Assembly (NCBI GenBank): GCA_020633495.1
Contig: JACKDR010000001.1
Location: forward strand, 246,105 to 310,104
Direction of reading: 5' to 3'
DNA length: 64,000 nt
DNA from: Kofleriaceae bacterium
GTDB lineage: Bacteria > Myxococcota_A > Polyangia > Haliangiales > Haliangiaceae
Part shown: positions 41,691 to 52,270 of the stretch, one piece after another
Layout of the letters: each line of letters opens with the position of its first letter
Position numbering within the stretch: the stretch's first letter is position 1
Translations under genes and position numbers: made by a program
The notes under the pieces: model-generated
Told to the model about the DNA's origin: nothing
What the model saw: only the letters and a program-made list of their open reading frames with translations
Databases searched by the model: none

Positions 41691-42101
41691 ATGACGTCCC
41701 ACTTCCTCTCCGTGAGCGACCTCATGACCACCGCGGTGGTCAGCGTCCGCGCCACCGAGCCCCTGCGGGAGGCCCACGCCGACATGCAGATGGGTGCGTT
41801 CCGCCACATGCCGGTGGTCGACGACCGGGGCCGGCTGGTCGGCATCATCTCGGACCGCGACGTCCTGCGCGCGATCAGCCGCCACAAGGCGACCCTGGTC
41901 GGCGAGGTCATGACCCGCCAGCCGGTGACCGTGAAGCCGGACACCGTGGCCCACGCCGCGGCGCTGGTCATGCTCGAGCGCAAGATCGGCGGCCTGCCGG
42001 TGGTCGACGAGGACGGTCACCTGGTCGGGCTGATCACCCAGACCGACTTCCTCGAGGTCGCGCGCCGGGCCCTGCTCGGCCTGCCGCTCGCGCGCGAGTA
42101 G
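41691..42101 (+). CDS. CBS-domain pair protein
   Basis: ATG at 41691. Two CBS repeats (VSDLMTTAVVSVRATEPLREAHADM...HMPVVDDRGRLVGIISDRDVL; VGEVMTRQPVTVKPDTV...LPVVDEDGHLVGLITQTDFL). Confidence 0.8.
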   Translation: MTSHFLSVSDLMTTAVVSVRATEPLREAHADMQMGAFRHMPVVDDRGRLVGIISDRDVLRAISRHKATLVGEVMTRQPVTVKPDTVAHAAALVMLERKIGGLPVVDEDGHLVGLITQTDFLEVARRALLGLPLARE

Positions 42102-42130: not shown

Positions 42131-44140
42131 TCACCGCGCCGGCGTCACGAAGACGTCGACGCGGCGGTTGCGATCGCGCCCGGCGGCGGTCGTGTTGGTG
42201 CCGACCGGCGCGTCGGCGCCGGACGACTCGACCGTGACGTGATCGCGCGGCACGCCGGCGCCGATCAGCCAGGCCGCGGTGGCGCGGGCGCGCCGCGCCG
42301 CGACCTCGACGTTGTCACGCGGGTCGCCGTCGGCGTCGGCGTGGCCGACGACCAGGATCCGGGCGCCGTCGCCGCGGGCCCGCTGCGCGAGCGGCGCCAG
42401 CTCGACCCGCGCCGCCTCCGACAGGGTCGCCGAGGCCCGCCCGAACGGCAGGCGCGCCACCAGCTCGCCGCGCGCCGCGGCGTCGCCGGGATCGTCGGCG
42501 GCCAGCGCGGCCAGGACCTCGGCCGGGGTGTCGCCGGGGACGAAGCCGCTGGCGGCGACCAGCTCCTGACCGGCCGGCGACAGCGCGAACCGCAGGAAGT
42601 CGGCGACGGCGCCGCGCGGCGCGCCGGCGCTGTAGATCAGGAGCGCGCGGTAGATCGGGTAACGGCCGTCGCGGACGGTCGCCGCCGAGGGGGCGATCGC
42701 CGCCGCGCCGGCGCCCGGCGAGATCGCGACGGCGCGGACGCCGGCGTCGACCCAGCCCAGCCCGACGTAGCCGATCGCGTCGGGGTCGGCGGCGACCGCG
42801 GCGACCAGCGCGTCGCTGTGCTCGATCTCGCGGGCGCCGGCGTCGATCGTCGCCGGGTCGTGGCCATCGCCGCGCCGCACCACCTTGTCGACGAAGAAGT
42901 CGTGGGTGCCGGAGTAGCCGGGCCGGCTCAGCAGGTGGACCGGGCGGTCGGGGCCGCCGAGCTCGGACCAGCGCGTGATCTCGCCGCGGAACAGCCGCGA
43001 CGCCTCGTCGATCGTCAGCGCCGCGATCGGGTTGTCGGGGTGGACGACGAGCGCGAGGCCGTCGTAGCCGAGCACGAGCTCGTCGAAGCGGACGCCGAGC
43101 CGCGCGGCGTCGTCGAGCTCGGCCGGCTTGACCGGGCGCGACGCCGCGCCGAGGTCGGCGGTGCCGTCGAGCAGGCCGACGAACGCGGTCGCCGAGCCCA
43201 GCGCCTCGACGGTGACCTCGACGTCGGGCCGGCGCGCCATGAACGCCTGCGCCAGCGCCGGGCCGAGGGCGCCGCCGATCGTGTCGCTGCCCTTGATGCG
43301 GACCCGCGCGGTCGCCGTGGTGCCGGCGAAGCTGACCGGCAGGTTGACCCACGCCGCCACCGGCGCGCCGCCCTGGCGCGCCGGCGCGAACCGCCACCCC
43401 CGCACCGCGTCCACCGCCGCCGCCTCGAACGCGGCCAGCTCGAGCCGCGACCGGTAGACGCTGACCTCGCGGACCCGCCCGTCGCGATCGACGAGCGCAC
43501 GGCACACGATCGTCGGCGTCAGCGCCAGGTCGCTGACCGGCCGCGCCGGCGCCGCGCCGTCGAGCCGCGCCGGCGGCTGGTCGTCGGGGCCGGTGAGGTC
43601 GGCGGCCTCGACCGCCGGCCCGTCGACGACCGCCGCGCCGCCGCGATCGGCCGGCGCCGCGACCACCGCCGCCGGCGTCACCGCGCGGCCGCCGCCGCGC
43701 TGCAGCCACAGCACCAGCGTCGACGCCACCGCCGCCGCGGTCACCGCCGCCAGCAGCGCCACCGCGGCGACCCGGCGCCGCGACGGCAGGCCCAGCTGTG
43801 GCGCCGACGGCCGCGCCGCGACGTGCGGCAGCGAGCCCTCGTCGAGGCGCTGCGCCGCCTCGAGCAGCAGGTGCGGCACGCTCGCGTCGACGGTGCGGCG
43901 CGGCGGCGCGACGCCGGGATCGACGGTGTAGGCCAGCCCGCGCGCGCCGAGCGCGGCGTGGGCGGCGTCGCGCCCGATCAGCGGGCCGAGCTCGGCGTGG
44001 ACCAGCTCGCCGTCGACCAGGTACAGCGCGCCGGTCACGGTGCCGGCGCGCATGCGCACCCGCAGCGAGCGCCGGCCGGCCGCCGAGACCTGCAACAGGT
44101 CGGCGAGGGGAAGCACGTCAGCGTCACCGGAAAGGGACAT
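42131..44140 (-). CDS. Multidomain envelope protein: DUF4388-like N-domain + TM + TonB C-terminal-like + PstS-like phosphate-binding periplasmic domain + OmpA-like peptidoglycan-binding domain
   Basis: ATG at 44140 (MSLSGDADVLPLADLLQVSAAGRRSLRV...YLVDGELVHAELG). TM AVALLAAVTAAAVASTLVLWL. TonB_C-like RALVDRDGRVREVSVYRS...AAVDAVRGWRFAP. PBP block IKGSDTIGGAL...LSRPGYSGTHDFF. OmpA-like ILVVGHADADGDPRDNVEVAARRARATAAWLIGAGV...RNRRVDVFV. Confidence 0.65.
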   Translation of the reverse strand: MSLSGDADVLPLADLLQVSAAGRRSLRVRMRAGTVTGALYLVDGELVHAELGPLIGRDAAHAALGARGLAYTVDPGVAPPRRTVDASVPHLLLEAAQRLDEGSLPHVAARPSAPQLGLPSRRRVAAVALLAAVTAAAVASTLVLWLQRGGGRAVTPAAVVAAPADRGGAAVVDGPAVEAADLTGPDDQPPARLDGAAPARPVSDLALTPTIVCRALVDRDGRVREVSVYRSRLELAAFEAAAVDAVRGWRFAPARQGGAPVAAWVNLPVSFAGTTATARVRIKGSDTIGGALGPALAQAFMARRPDVEVTVEALGSATAFVGLLDGTADLGAASRPVKPAELDDAARLGVRFDELVLGYDGLALVVHPDNPIAALTIDEASRLFRGEITRWSELGGPDRPVHLLSRPGYSGTHDFFVDKVVRRGDGHDPATIDAGAREIEHSDALVAAVAADPDAIGYVGLGWVDAGVRAVAISPGAGAAAIAPSAATVRDGRYPIYRALLIYSAGAPRGAVADFLRFALSPAGQELVAASGFVPGDTPAEVLAALAADDPGDAAARGELVARLPFGRASATLSEAARVELAPLAQRARGDGARILVVGHADADGDPRDNVEVAARRARATAAWLIGAGVPRDHVTVESSGADAPVGTNTTAAGRDRNRRVDVFVTPAR

Positions 44141-44335
44141 GGGACCTCTCGGAGGCCGCGAGCACCGCGCTCGCCAGGGGCTCCGACCGCGCAGCCTGCC
44201 AGGCGCGCGTGACCGTCCCGCGCCAGGGCGGTGACGACCGACGGGTCGAGGCCGCGACCGCGGTTCGCCGCGGTTCGATCGACGTTCTGCACGTAGGGGT
44301 TCCCACGCGCGCCGACTCGCGTGTCTGCTCTGGTG

Positions 44336-45358
44336 ATGCCGCCCACCTGCTCCTGGCCCGGACTCCCCGCGGCGGTGGCCGCGACCGCCGCCGTGGCGTC
44401 CGCCGCGTGCGTGGTCGAGATGGACACCGAGCGCCCGGCGAGCCCGATCGGCGCGGTCACGACCGACTGTGTCGTGCCCCTGCCCGATCGCGGCGCCCCG
44501 GCCGCGCTCGAGTACCCCGACGGGACCCTGTGGATCTTCGACGATGGCGGCGCCGCGTTCGTGGCGTCGATCGACGACGCCTGCGCCGGCGTCGTCGCCG
44601 CGTGGCCCGACCCGGTGCTGGCGCTGACCGCGGAGGAGGAGGCGGACGACCAGACCCGCACCGACGGCCGCGCCTGGGCGCTGCGGCCGCGGGGCGGCGT
44701 GGTCGCCGCGGGCGTCGGCTACCTCTACTACGATCGGGTGCTGACCGGCCCCGGCGTCTTCGACGTCGAGGTCATCGACACCGGCGTGTGCACGATCGCG
44801 GATCGTCCCGGACCGTGCGCGCGCGCGCCGGCGCCGCTGTGGCCGGGCGGCGCCCGGTCGTGGGGCGACGCCGGCTTCGTCGAGGACGGCGTCGCGTACG
44901 TCTACGGCTGCGATCACCTGGCCGCGTTCACCGATCTGTGCGCGCTGGCGCGGGTGCCGGTCGCCGACGTCACCGACGCCGCCGCCTACGCGTACCTCGG
45001 CTGGGACGACGCCTGGCGGCCGCGCGGCGACGACACCGTGACCCTGTTCGAGGCGCCCGGCGCGATCAGCGCCAGCCGCCACGCGCCGTCGGGGCGGGTG
45101 ATGGTCACCGTCGCCGATCTGTGGGACTCGCGGCTCGAGCTGCGGACCGCGGCCGGCCCGGCCGGCGGCTTCGACGATCCGCTGGTGCTGTTCGACGTCG
45201 CGTCGCCGCCGGACTGGTTCTTCGCCGGCGGTCGCGAGCACGCCGGGCTGCGCGAGCCGGGCGCGCTGGCGTTCAGCTACGCGACGACCGCGGCGCCGGC
45301 GCCGGGGCTGCACGTGGTCCGGTTCCAGGTCGCCGACGAGGGGCTGCAGCCGTGGTGA
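44336..45358 (+). CDS. Hypothetical lipoprotein
   Basis: ORF 44321..45358; MPPTCSWPGLPAAVAATAAVASAAC lipobox. Stop overlaps the GTG of the next gene (GTGA). Confidence 0.5.
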   Translation: MPPTCSWPGLPAAVAATAAVASAACVVEMDTERPASPIGAVTTDCVVPLPDRGAPAALEYPDGTLWIFDDGGAAFVASIDDACAGVVAAWPDPVLALTAEEEADDQTRTDGRAWALRPRGGVVAAGVGYLYYDRVLTGPGVFDVEVIDTGVCTIADRPGPCARAPAPLWPGGARSWGDAGFVEDGVAYVYGCDHLAAFTDLCALARVPVADVTDAAAYAYLGWDDAWRPRGDDTVTLFEAPGAISASRHAPSGRVMVTVADLWDSRLELRTAAGPAGGFDDPLVLFDVASPPDWFFAGGREHAGLREPGALAFSYATTAAPAPGLHVVRFQVADEGLQPW

Positions 45359-49499: not shown

Positions 49500-49640
49500 G
49501 GCGCCGTCGTCCTACGTGTCGGTGTCGGTGTCTCGACGGCCTGACGCGACGGATCTCGCACGATCCGGCACGGCGCGACGCGGCGAACCGTGACGATCCG
49601 CGGGCCTGGCCGTGGCACGCTGGTTGAACCACCGGGGCCC

Positions 49641-50192
49641 ATGACCACGAACCTCGCCTCGCGCCGCGCCGCCCTGACCCTGTCGCTGCTCGTCTCCACC
49701 GGCGTGGCCGGGTGCGGCGCCACCGGCGACTGGTTCCCCTCCGACGTCGACGAGGCCAAGTCGCTGGCCGCCGACACCCAGGCGGTCGGCCGGGTCTGCG
49801 ACGCCTTCGCCGACTGGGTCTACGACCAGTACCGCGACTCCCTCGCGGTCGAGATCGCGTGCACCGCGTCCGGCATCGAGCAGAGCGCCGACGCCGCCGC
49901 CTGCGGCGCCTTCGTCCGCGACTGCATCGACGACCCGCCCGCCGAGGTCGCGGCGGCCGCCGATGCGCTGATCGCCGCCGTCGGCTGCGGCGCGATCTCG
50001 TACCAGCCCAGCGGCTGCGGCCAGACCATCTCGGATCTGCGGATCTGCCTCGACGACGTCAGCGTCGAGCTCGACCAGCTGCGCTACACCGTCGAGTGCA
50101 CCGCCGCCGGCCAGCCGCTGTCGCCGGCGGCGCTGACGATCGATGTGCCGGCGTCGTGCCTGGCGATCGAGAACGCGTGCCCGACGCCGTGA
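49641..50192 (+). CDS. Hypothetical Cys-rich lipoprotein
   Basis: ORF 49590..50192; start MTTNLASRRAALTLSLLVSTGVAGC (lipobox). Ten Cys. Confidence 0.5.
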   Translation: MTTNLASRRAALTLSLLVSTGVAGCGATGDWFPSDVDEAKSLAADTQAVGRVCDAFADWVYDQYRDSLAVEIACTASGIEQSADAAACGAFVRDCIDDPPAEVAAAADALIAAVGCGAISYQPSGCGQTISDLRICLDDVSVELDQLRYTVECTAAGQPLSPAALTIDVPASCLAIENACPTP

Positions 50193-50290
50193 CCGGCGCC
50201 GCACCGGGCCGCGACCGCGCCACCGTAACTCGCGTGGTCGGGCTCACCTCCGCCGGCTTTCGGTCGTCGCCGTCGCCTTCGCCCTGCCCT

Positions 50291-52270
50291 ATGATCCAGG
50301 CTCCGGTGTCCGCCCAGCCCGAGCTCGCCACCCCCACCGACGACCCCGACCGCGACCCGGCCGGCGCCAAGCGGGCCGGCGACTACGTCCTGGTCCGGCG
50401 CATCGGCTCGGGCGGCATGGGCGAGGTCTGGCTGGGGCGGCACGTCCTCAGCGGCTCGCTCGGCGCGGTCAAGCGGATCGGGCGCGCCGGCCAGCGCACC
50501 GCGATCGTCGGCGCCTACTTCGCGCGCGAGGGCCGCGCGATCACCCGGCTCGATCACCCGCACATCGTGCCGCTGATCGACATCGGCGCCGACTACCTGG
50601 TGACCGCGTTCGTCGACGGCGGCGACCTCGCGCGGCGGCTGCAGACGCCGATCGCGCCGGCCGCGGCGCTCCACCTGGCCCGGCAGATCGCCGACGCGCT
50701 GGTCCACGCCCACGACCGCGGCGTCGTCCACCGCGACGTCAAGCCGTCGAACGTGCTGGTCGACCGCCGCGGCAACGCCTACCTGACCGACTTCGGCCTG
50801 GCCGCGCTCGTCGACGACCCCGACGACCCGCGCCCCGGCGCCGGCACGCCGCTGTTCATGGCGCCCGAGCAGCGCCGCGGCGAGCCCGCCGGGCCCGCCG
50901 CCGACCAGTACGCGCTCGGCCGCACGCTGCTGGAGATGCTGATCGGCGGCCGCGTCCCGCTCGATCGCGAGAGCGCCCTCGCCGAGCTGCCCGCGGGCCT
51001 GCCCGACCCGCTGCGGGCGCTGCTCGAGCGCGCCACCGCGGCGCGCGCCGAGGACCGGTTCCCGTCGATGCGCGCCCTCGCCGACGCGCTGGCCGCGATC
51101 GTCGCCGATCACGCGACGCCGCCGCGGCGCCTGGCGCCGATCCTGCGCGACCCCGACGCCTTCCGCTGGGCCGCGGGCGCCCACGCCGTCGTCGACGTCG
51201 GCCCCGACGTCAGCCGCGCCGACTACCGCCTGCGCGACCTGGTCGCCGCCGGCCTGCTGCCGCGCGACGACGTCGACGAGGTCCTCGATCGCGCCGGCCT
51301 CGCCGACATCGGGTTCGCGGCGTGGGGCGATCGCGGCCGGCTCGGCGCGCTGACCGCGGCCGACGCGCTGACCCGCGCCACCGACGTCGTGATCCTGCTG
51401 CACGGCTTCGGCCACACCCGGGAGGCGTGGGGCAGCCTGGCCCGCGCGGTGTGCCGCGACAACGCGCAGGCGCTGGTGCTGGCGCCCGACGTCCACGGCT
51501 TCGGCGAGACCCGGTTCCGGCGGACCCCGACGATCGCGCAGGCCAGCATGGTCGGGCTGGCCCGCGCCGTCGACGACTGGCGCCGCCTGCTCGGGGTCGC
51601 GACGATCCCGACCGCGCTGGTCGGCCACTCGATGTGCGGGCTGGCGCTGCTGACGATCGACGACGACGGCGCCGGCCTGCGGGTGGCGCGGATCGCGGTG
51701 ACCCCGACGCTGGCGAGCCACGATCCGGCGCTGTGCCGGCGGTTCCGCAACCAGGCGCGCCTCGCGGCGACGATCGGACGCATCGCGCCGCTGCGGCGCT
51801 GGTTCATCCGGCGCTCGGCGACGCGCGTCGAGCAGAACCGCCACCTCGTGCCCGAGGCGGCCAGGCTGATGGCCGAGGAGATCGCGCGCATGCCGGGCGG
51901 CGTGCTGCACCGCGTGGCCCGCGCGATCGGCGACGCGCCGCCGCGGCTGGGCCGCCAGAGCCGGGTCGCGGTCGTGGTCGCGGTCGACGATCCGCTGATG
52001 GACTTCGCGGCGCTCGATCGCGCGATCGCCGACGTCGGGATCGCGCCCGAGCACGTCCACCGCTTCCCCGACGGCGGCCACCACCCGCACGTCGAGAGCG
52101 CCGCGCACCCCGAGTGGAGCGCGCGCAACGGCCTCGATCTGGCGCGCGTGATCGACGCGATGCTGGTGTCGGCGGCCGAGGCGCCGGTGCTCGACGGTGA
52201 CTCGCCGGTCGGGCTCGACTCGACGGTGCAGCTGCACACCACGGTCGCCGGCTCGAGCGACAGCGTCTGA
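50291..52270 (+). CDS. Ser/Thr protein kinase fused to a C-terminal alpha/beta-hydrolase fold domain
   Basis: ATG at 50291 (MIQAPVSAQPELATP). Kinase GSGGMGEVW, HRDVKPSN, DFG, GTPLFMAPE. C-terminal VVILLHGFGHTREAW...LVGHSMCGLALL (GxSxG nucleophile elbow), with Asp/His candidates downstream. Confidence 0.8.
   Translation: MIQAPVSAQPELATPTDDPDRDPAGAKRAGDYVLVRRIGSGGMGEVWLGRHVLSGSLGAVKRIGRAGQRTAIVGAYFAREGRAITRLDHPHIVPLIDIGADYLVTAFVDGGDLARRLQTPIAPAAALHLARQIADALVHAHDRGVVHRDVKPSNVLVDRRGNAYLTDFGLAALVDDPDDPRPGAGTPLFMAPEQRRGEPAGPAADQYALGRTLLEMLIGGRVPLDRESALAELPAGLPDPLRALLERATAARAEDRFPSMRALADALAAIVADHATPPRRLAPILRDPDAFRWAAGAHAVVDVGPDVSRADYRLRDLVAAGLLPRDDVDEVLDRAGLADIGFAAWGDRGRLGALTAADALTRATDVVILLHGFGHTREAWGSLARAVCRDNAQALVLAPDVHGFGETRFRRTPTIAQASMVGLARAVDDWRRLLGVATIPTALVGHSMCGLALLTIDDDGAGLRVARIAVTPTLASHDPALCRRFRNQARLAATIGRIAPLRRWFIRRSATRVEQNRHLVPEAARLMAEEIARMPGGVLHRVARAIGDAPPRLGRQSRVAVVVAVDDPLMDFAALDRAIADVGIAPEHVHRFPDGGHHPHVESAAHPEWSARNGLDLARVIDAMLVSAAEAPVLDGDSPVGLDSTVQLHTTVAGSSDSV

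Follow-up and report, generated by a model that had tools for sequence, protein, structure and literature searches.

Binding-protein-dependent sensors, such as those of the LuxPQ, TorTS and CtpL-PstS type, rely on a periplasmic binding protein that docks on a membrane protein with a cytoplasmic output. TonB proper is anchored by an N-terminal transmembrane (TM) helix whose conserved His (SHLS-type motif) couples it to ExbB/ExbD, YfiB takes part in YfiBNR envelope signalling, and GltG and GltJ of the Myxococcus gliding machinery (PglI/AgmX; NCBIfam NF033768) are bitopic inner-membrane proteins that carry a regulatory domain on the cytoplasmic side and end in a TonB_C-like part in the periplasm. 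In Pseudomonas aeruginosa, PstS loaded with orthophosphate (Pi) stimulates the chemoreceptor CtpL by binding to it (PMC4926252); the PATAN domain of Synechocystis is a demonstrated output domain, which binds PilB1/PilC and suffices for the reversal of phototaxis (10.1101/2021.06.11.447907); and binding of TonB to FhuD and BtuF, both of them periplasmic binding proteins, was reported in studies cited in PMC3813593. Here we describe a gene (positions 42131-44140, minus strand) from a 64,000-nt stretch of DNA of a Kofleriaceae bacterium (assembly GCA_020633495.1, contig JACKDR010000001.1, positions 246,105-310,104), the whole of which is hereafter called the window. The gene combines in one polypeptide a PATAN domain, a TM helix, a TonB C-terminal domain (TonB_C), a PstS-type domain and an OmpA-like domain.

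The gene encodes a real 669-residue bitopic inner-membrane protein spanning the cell envelope, and comparison with its relatives at the sequence level identifies it as a Rosetta-stone fusion of a two-gene unit. We propose that the protein is a binding-protein-type phosphate sensor, in which a wall-anchored PstS domain would report periplasmic phosphate to a cytoplasmic output, a reading that we consider to be about evenly balanced between right and wrong. The gene starts with an ATG (44138-44140) and comprises 669 codons followed by a TGA stop (42131-42133); its translation contains no internal stop, in agreement with an earlier reading made from the letters of the window (hereafter, the sequence-only reading), which had described a single polypeptide. 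A GAGAGG motif resembling a ribosome-binding site lies 4 nt upstream of the ATG, and the GC contents at the first, second and third codon positions (0.82, 0.58 and 0.98, respectively) are as expected for true coding DNA here. The window has a GC content of ~75% and many overlapping long open reading frames (ORFs) are listed across all of its frames. Given that chance long ORFs are frequent at this GC content, the length of the ORF is no evidence, and homology was used instead: 34 homologues with 40-62% identity are alignable from residue 1 to the end and display an identical architecture, supporting both the start codon and the fusion.

An exact-sequence look-up retrieved no database record for the window protein. 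P0001, from a Kofleriaceae metagenome-assembled genome (MAG), matches it with 100% identity over the aligned part, with one residue different, and is labelled as a 458-aa 'TonB family protein'. The corresponding gene call is equivalent to positions 42131-43507 of the window and starts at an internal GTG (V211) within the first strand of TonB_C, thereby omitting the PATAN domain, the TM helix and that strand. Because the start coincides with a GTG inside a TonB_C strand, the public annotation of P0001 is truncated, with a mis-called start, and is corrected by the present analysis.

All four domains named in the sequence-only reading (PF14332, PF03544, PF12849 and PF00691) score above the curated Pfam gathering cut-offs, and their order, as seen in the Pfam matches and in the AlphaFold2 (AF2) model, is exactly the one claimed there: PATAN, TM helix, TonB_C, PstS, OmpA. 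An NCBIfam scan was run in addition. The cytoplasmic PATAN domain (43838-44128, on the minus strand, as are all features of the gene; residues 5-101) matches PF14332, also known as DUF4388 and now named PatA_N, with 43.4 bits (cut-off 25), and the same family is present in the precomputed annotation of the homologues. It is a short form of the domain, with 97 residues in a gapped alignment over profile positions 2-120, and is modelled as a compact unit of six β-strands and three α-helices. The α-helical insertion of PatA-type members, which is not family-wide, is absent from the domain in both the profile alignment and the model. The single TM helix (43700-43777; residues ~122-147 in the AF2 model, with a Kyte-Doolittle peak at 126-144) is directly preceded by RRR and represents the only hydrophobic peak of the protein. 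The N-in, C-out topology is predicted from this arrangement, so that the cytoplasmic N-terminus, one helix and periplasmic remainder of the sequence-only reading all stand.

The helix is followed by a disordered Ala/Pro-rich periplasmic spacer (43616-43699; residues ~148-175), which has predicted local distance difference test (pLDDT) values below 50 at residues 149-172 and varies in both length and sequence among the aligned homologues. Next comes a region (43325-43615; pLDDT 84-97) composed of a pre-TonB segment (residues 176-209) and TonB_C (Pfam boundaries 210-271). The latter scores 38.6 bits with PF03544 (cut-off 24.6) and 37.4 bits with TIGR01352 (tonB_Cterm; cut-off 27.1), and the former carries a conserved motif, LTGxxDxPPxLLxGxxPxxP, with P190, P201 and P209 being invariant. 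The PstS-type Venus-flytrap domain (42536-43321; residues 274-535), for which phosphate binding is predicted, and the OmpA-like peptidoglycan-binding domain (42164-42445; residues 566-659; PF00691, 55.2 bits versus a cut-off of 27.2) complete the protein. The full-length AF2 model, for which 35 homologues served as input, has a mean pLDDT of 87.4, with every domain above 90, and contains disordered linkers at residues 110-123, 149-172 and 550-556.

Several lines of evidence point to phosphate as the ligand of the PstS domain. Residues 274-522 match PBP_like_2 (PF12849) with 129.1 bits (cut-off 27), and the best sequence matches in the PDB are 4omb, deposited as 'Phosphate binding protein', and 4pqj (E about 1e-31). 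In a Foldseek search against the PDB, the top 39 matches are all phosphate-binding proteins, with E-values between 1e-23 and 1e-12 for solved PstS structures and target-normalised TM-scores of 0.7-0.89 for the nearest ones, which confirms the substrate-binding fold that had been assigned to this block. The phosphate contacts of Clostridium perfringens PBP-1 are Ser11, Thr12, Ser13, Ser41, Ser59, Arg125, Ser129, Gly130 and Thr131 (PMC5381212). Transferred through HMMER alignment to 4gd5 and 4omb, they map to S285, D286, T287, S316, S334, R406, S410, G411 and T412 of the window protein, eight of the nine being identical to PBP-1. The ninth is a Thr to Asp change (D286), which yields a GSDT motif, the same as in 4omb. 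The mapped residues are invariant in 35 members of the family sharing 40-62% identity, except for D286, which is at least 90% conserved. The OmpA-like domain, the PDB matches of which include Rv0899, PA0833, YfiB and Pal, keeps the GHAD...N-x6-RRA and NRRVD motifs, with G599, R617 and R659 being invariant. Since the contact residues and the OmpA motifs are retained, we consider the predictions of phosphate binding and of peptidoglycan binding to be well-founded.

The fusion is best understood through the distribution of its parts. A protein search over 5.8 billion proteins yielded ~45 full-length proteins that share all four Pfam domains. A scan of species-representative genomes recovered relatives in Myxococcota (Haliangiales, Polyangiales, Nannocystaceae and Anaeromyxobacter) and a second group in MAGs of Acidobacteriota/Thermoanaerobaculia, with taxon labels as given by the submitters. 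The C-terminal two-thirds of the window protein are 48-53% identical to PstS-OmpA proteins of ~413 aa, and two such short homologues are each preceded by a gene for a ~300-aa PatA_N and TonB_C protein, across a gap of 23-27 nt. Four domain hidden Markov models, derived from the alignment of the family, were used to scan every ORF in the fetched loci. A single fused ORF is present in 12 loci (the window, L002, L004-L008, L010-L012, L015 and L016), all of which belong to Myxococcota wherever labelled. Two co-directional ORFs are found in ~21 loci, mostly from Acidobacteriota/Thermoanaerobaculia and one from Anaeromyxobacter, and two adjacent divergent ORFs in three loci of Thermoanaerobaculia (L027, L029 and L035). 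The split pair thus takes the form of [PATAN-TM-TonB_C] and [signal peptide-PstS-OmpA] in ~24 loci.

The boundary between the two genes is sharply defined. In the split co-directional loci, the upstream gene terminates exactly where TonB_C ends, at a real stop codon, and the second gene begins 16-60 nt downstream with a Sec-type signal peptide (e.g., MWKKLVLTIGIVLGAAATVATGESVRIKGSDT). Unlike in the split forms, the corresponding junction in the window protein (...NLPVSFAGTTATARVRIKGSDT...) contains neither a stop nor a signal peptide. The sampled members of the PstS-OmpA clade for which enough flanking sequence is available are always adjoined by a PATAN- or kinase-TM-TonB_C gene. A word-indexed search with the N-terminal half alone returned three matches and was uninformative, and an exhaustive profile search with the PATAN-TM-TonB_C half against 1.84 billion cluster representatives (50%-identity clusters) was used instead. 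It recovered 139 proteins at E ≤1e-30, of which ~72 cover the whole profile, ~25 of them with 620-715 aa (fused) and ~45 with 263-347 aa (split). By the Rosetta-stone principle, the occurrence of fused and split forms suggests that PstS-OmpA, once secreted, functions jointly with the membrane protein. A further arrangement was observed in a Nannocystaceae MAG (L014, 7290-10244), where a PATAN ORF is followed ~120 nt later by a TM-TonB_C-PstS-OmpA ORF (P0045), which reflects either another type of split or a frameshifted MAG sequence. In the split systems, we also considered TonB-box mimicry by the mature N-terminus of PstS-OmpA (DTVRIKG), an idea that was dropped, as this segment is the buried first β-strand of the PstS fold.

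The cytoplasmic module is exchangeable. In paralogous proteins, a Hanks-type Ser/Thr kinase that keeps the HRD and DFG motifs occupies the position of PATAN, while the TM-TonB_C-PstS-OmpA part is 47-52% identical. Such kinase versions occur both fused (P0033, P0036, P0185 and P0212) and split (L041 and P0172). The closest PATAN domains outside the family are found in multi-PATAN proteins or behind REC, FHA-REC and cNMP-binding domains. The kinase swap and the contexts of related PATAN domains suggest that the cytoplasmic end is the output and the periplasmic cassette the input of the system. The suggestion of the sequence-only reading that the cytoplasmic end could couple ligand binding to a signalling or motility partner hence gains comparative support from the kinase swap, the PATAN contexts and the output role of the Synechocystis domain, the coupling being what we infer from them. 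Both L009 and L019 come from the MAG of Polyangiaceae bacterium LLY-WYZ-14_1 and comprise a kinase-TM-TonB_C-PstS-OmpA gene and a TonB_C-PstS gene on a short contig; because this MAG holds two family loci, paralogous receptors seem to coexist in one genome.

At the gene level, fusion and fission of the two halves together with the exchange of PATAN and kinase outputs constitute the signature that a binding-protein sensor would leave. In the proposed mechanism, the PstS domain would bind Pi in a closed Venus-flytrap pocket, while the OmpA-like domain would hold the module on peptidoglycan. TonB_C would be the surface at which the membrane protein and PstS-OmpA dock; these two are separate polypeptides in the split systems and are covalently joined here. 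Occupancy by Pi may alter the association of TonB_C with PstS, or how the membrane protein clusters or moves, and thereby change the action of PATAN on a cytoplasmic partner. By analogy with cyanobacteria, this partner might belong to the machinery of motility or polarity, the type IV pilus motor being one candidate, and in the paralogues the same periplasmic cassette would drive the Hanks-type Ser/Thr kinase. A motility or polarity target is our leading guess because cyanobacterial PATAN binds PilB1/PilC and because STRING records a co-occurrence of Myxococcus xanthus PATAN proteins with SgmX, a pilus regulator. Taken to its full extent, the model would describe a phosphate receptor independent of PhoR and PstSCAB in non-flagellated, surface-motile bacteria of the Myxococcota and Thermoanaerobaculia. 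In it, a peptidoglycan-anchored PstS would act on a TonB_C receiver, with PATAN directly steering the type IV pilus or polarity machinery, or the kinase paralogue steering a phosphorylation cascade, so that phosphate taxis or foraging would be switched with no chemoreceptor or two-component system involved. We offer this extended version tentatively, as a conjecture that is more apt to fail than to hold.

Several observations weigh against the phosphate sensor as proposed. The PstS domain scores 186.7 bits with the PstS-family model TIGR02136, under its cut-off of 206.6, the canonical PstS of locus L038 scoring 236.6 bits for comparison. The predicted TM-score (pTM) of the AF2 model is 0.51 and the relative placement of the domains is uncertain, a value compatible with a beads-on-a-string arrangement of the modelled domains. 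In P0080 and L036, PATAN-TM is joined straight to PstS-OmpA without TonB_C, and because such members exist, TonB_C is not essential; their layout is compatible with TonB_C acting as an adaptor. The evidence that ties PATAN to type IV pili comes mainly from cyanobacteria, and binding of a partner such as PilB or PilC is known only for proteins of Synechocystis. When the flanking ORFs of 40 loci (±8 kb) were clustered, no conserved neighbour identifying the PATAN partner emerged. The conservation of the gene neighbourhood raised by the sequence-only reading holds for the two halves, which are adjacent in ~24 split loci, but for no other neighbour in the ~40 loci. Finally, classical conformational signalling of the piston or scissor kind through the helix is unlikely because the spacer is disordered and the TM helix variable. 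A mechanism based on recruitment, clustering or localisation appears more plausible.

The same data can be read in other ways. The wall-anchored PstS might be a nutritional scaffold that concentrates periplasmic phosphate or passes it to PstCA, with TonB_C and the TM helix as a tether and PATAN as a positioning device. The intact predicted Pi pocket, the existence of PstS-OmpA as a free secreted protein in split systems and the reported binding of FhuD and BtuF by Escherichia coli TonB (refs 55 and 56 cited in PMC3813593) would all suit such a role, as would L038 (1796-7560; Thermoanaerobaculaceae MAG). In this locus, phoU(-LMWPc)-pstS-pstC-pstA-pstB immediately precedes the split pair and shares its strand, which provides anecdotal support for the phosphate link. 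However, this is the only one of the ~40 loci in which pstCAB is adjacent to the family, pstCAB was not found around the window gene, and anchoring to peptidoglycan should hinder docking on an inner-membrane permease. The scaffold also offers no reason for the connection of the cassette to a Ser/Thr kinase predicted to be active and to PATAN, which elsewhere lies behind REC, FHA and cNMP-binding inputs. We consider it unlikely. It also strikes us as improbable that the protein serves in the envelope as an anchor or stator of a machine associated with PATAN (type IV pili or gliding), its key function being a mechanical link from the cytoplasm to peptidoglycan and PstS being structural or only modulatory. 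An OmpA-like anchor combined with a TM helix and a cytoplasmic interaction domain does recall anchoring of the MotB/Pal type. GltG and GltJ of myxobacterial gliding are likewise bitopic with TonB_C-like ends, and the weak, sub-threshold match of the window protein to the AgmX/PglI tail model of NCBIfam (22.9 bits versus a cut-off of 40) is compatible with this view. Yet the invariance of the Pi-contact residues at 40-62% identity speaks for selection on ligand binding, beyond the fold; a disordered spacer is a poor transmitter of force; motility genes, including pilus and mgl genes, are not conserved near the loci; and the swap of PATAN for a kinase suits signalling better than mechanics.

A genuine TonB-type energy transducer, carrying its binding protein as a fusion and opening a TonB-dependent transporter in the outer membrane to a phosphorus compound, would account for the above-threshold TonB_C match, for the label 'TonB family protein' given to homologues by NCBI and for the TonB-like succession of a TM helix, a Pro/Ala-rich spacer and a C-terminal domain. 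The TM helix argues otherwise: it is not conserved in sequence among 35 members, and in all 35 it is devoid of His, of the SHLS motif and of any conserved polar residue in the hydrophobic core. The lack of the conserved His motif indicates that the protein is not a canonical TonB. Furthermore, neither exbB/exbD nor TonB-dependent receptor genes are conserved near the ~40 loci (±8 kb), although such partners might be encoded farther away. In place of a short N-terminal tail there is a PATAN domain of 100 residues or a kinase of 300, and TonB_C is internal, with ~400 residues fused after it, and is missing from some members. Energy transduction of this kind is accordingly very improbable. As for a frameshift or assembly error that merged two separate neighbouring genes, split two-gene versions exist and the public P0001 call covers only 458 aa. 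Nevertheless, the same continuous ORF is present in 11 other independent assemblies, the labelled ones all being from Myxococcota, as well as in ~25 fused cluster representatives. The junction shows no stop or signal peptide, and P0001 reflects a mis-called start, not a separate gene, leaving an artefact with a negligible probability.

Around the window gene, the neighbours are a convergent CBS-pair gene (41700-42101, plus strand) and a divergent DUF4185-like gene (plus strand), which starts near 44321-44336. Because of this convergent and divergent arrangement, the gene is probably transcribed alone. The GH31 gene, the short-chain dehydrogenase, the DUF4185-like gene and a kinase-hydrolase fusion of the window are common only to the close relative L001/L004 and thus reflect lineage synteny. 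The latter fusion (49628-52270, plus strand) consists of a Ser/Thr protein kinase and a C-terminal Abhydrolase_6 domain, and an equal fusion is found at L001 (106-2043). Across the ~40 loci, the largest clusters of flanking ORFs are generic sigma-54 activators (8 loci), ABC ATPases (7 loci) and an M24 peptidase confined to Thermoanaerobaculia. The recurrent ABC ATPases were considered as PstB candidates and rejected, being MacB/LolD-like; true PstB is encoded only in L038. A promoter and terminator scan of the locus returned nothing, as expected for a region of 79% GC. A 33-nt block, GAGCAGACACGCGAGTCGGCGCGCGTGGGAACC (44298-44330, given as the minus strand), is conserved with the syntenic L004, unlike the remaining intergenic DNA. 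It holds a palindrome, CACGCG-N8-CGCGTG, is located shortly before the likely ATG (44336) of the divergent gene, whose product is lipoprotein-like (DUF4185-like), and may be an operator or a hairpin of the 5′ untranslated region. Closer to the gene, ~120 nt upstream of its start codon, lies a tandem 10-bp direct repeat with one mismatch, GAACCGCGGC GAACCGCGGT (44257-44276, minus strand), which is not conserved in L004 and could be due to chance.

Each of the domains, the principle of signalling dependent on substrate-binding proteins and the NCBI name for the PstS-OmpA half are known already. By contrast, our full-text literature searches found no paper on the complete architecture, the split form, PstS-OmpA fusions, PATAN in combination with TonB or the pairing of TonB_C with PstS. 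The four-domain family, conserved across two phyla, is previously undescribed. The sequence-only reading had called the combination a non-textbook architecture; it is indeed unusual but also recurrent, with ~72 clusters at 50% identity. Should the proposed sensor be correct, TonB_C would gain a second role, as a docking or receiver domain for a periplasmic binding protein, and PATAN, which is widespread but has few functions assigned outside cyanobacteria, would gain a defined extracytoplasmic input. It would further provide a route for sensing external phosphate that bypasses PstSCAB-PhoU-PhoR in two soil and sediment phyla that are often phosphate-limited. The natural split, fused and kinase-swapped versions would render the hypothesis testable with purified parts.

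Compared with E. coli TonB, the window protein has the same TM anchor, flexible spacer and TonB_C, and the presence of a binding protein fused to or next to TonB_C parallels the contacts of TonB with FhuD and BtuF as reported in the works cited above. It differs from TonB in the lack of His/SHLS in the TM helix and of exbBD nearby, in the large cytoplasmic domain and in the internal position of TonB_C. GltG and GltJ are similarly bitopic myxobacterial inner-membrane proteins with a cytoplasmic domain and a TonB_C-like periplasmic part, but they possess no PstS or OmpA domain, their cytoplasmic domains are unlike PATAN, and the window gene lies outside any glt/agl cluster. With YfiB, Pal and MotB, the window protein shares an OmpA-like domain with a peptidoglycan-binding motif, and YfiB illustrates that a peptidoglycan-bound OmpA-like protein can serve in a trans-envelope signalling relay. 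Here, however, a PstS domain is added, and both a lipid anchor and YfiR/YfiN partners are lacking. PixG, PixE and PatA (10.1101/2021.06.11.447907) belong to the same PF14332 family, and their PATAN domain is an output that contacts a membrane-associated machine. These are soluble PATAN-REC proteins under phosphorylation or photoreceptor control, whereas in the window protein PATAN is N-terminal to a TM helix, has a presumed periplasmic input and lacks the α-helical insertion.

The NCBI 'phosphate ABC transporter substrate-binding/OmpA family protein' (e.g., P0082, from Anaeromyxobacter) is a secreted protein of ~413 aa with a signal peptide, of which the window protein represents a covalent fusion with its neighbour. 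The nearest mechanistic analogy is offered by PstS and CtpL of P. aeruginosa: in both cases, a PstS-type protein would present the phosphate status to the periplasmic part of a TM signalling protein that controls motility. The receiver in the window protein would be TonB_C rather than the ligand-binding domain of a chemoreceptor, and the output PATAN or a Ser/Thr kinase instead of CheA/CheW, whereas PstS here has its own peptidoglycan anchor and is fused or operon-linked to its putative receptor, outside a pst operon.

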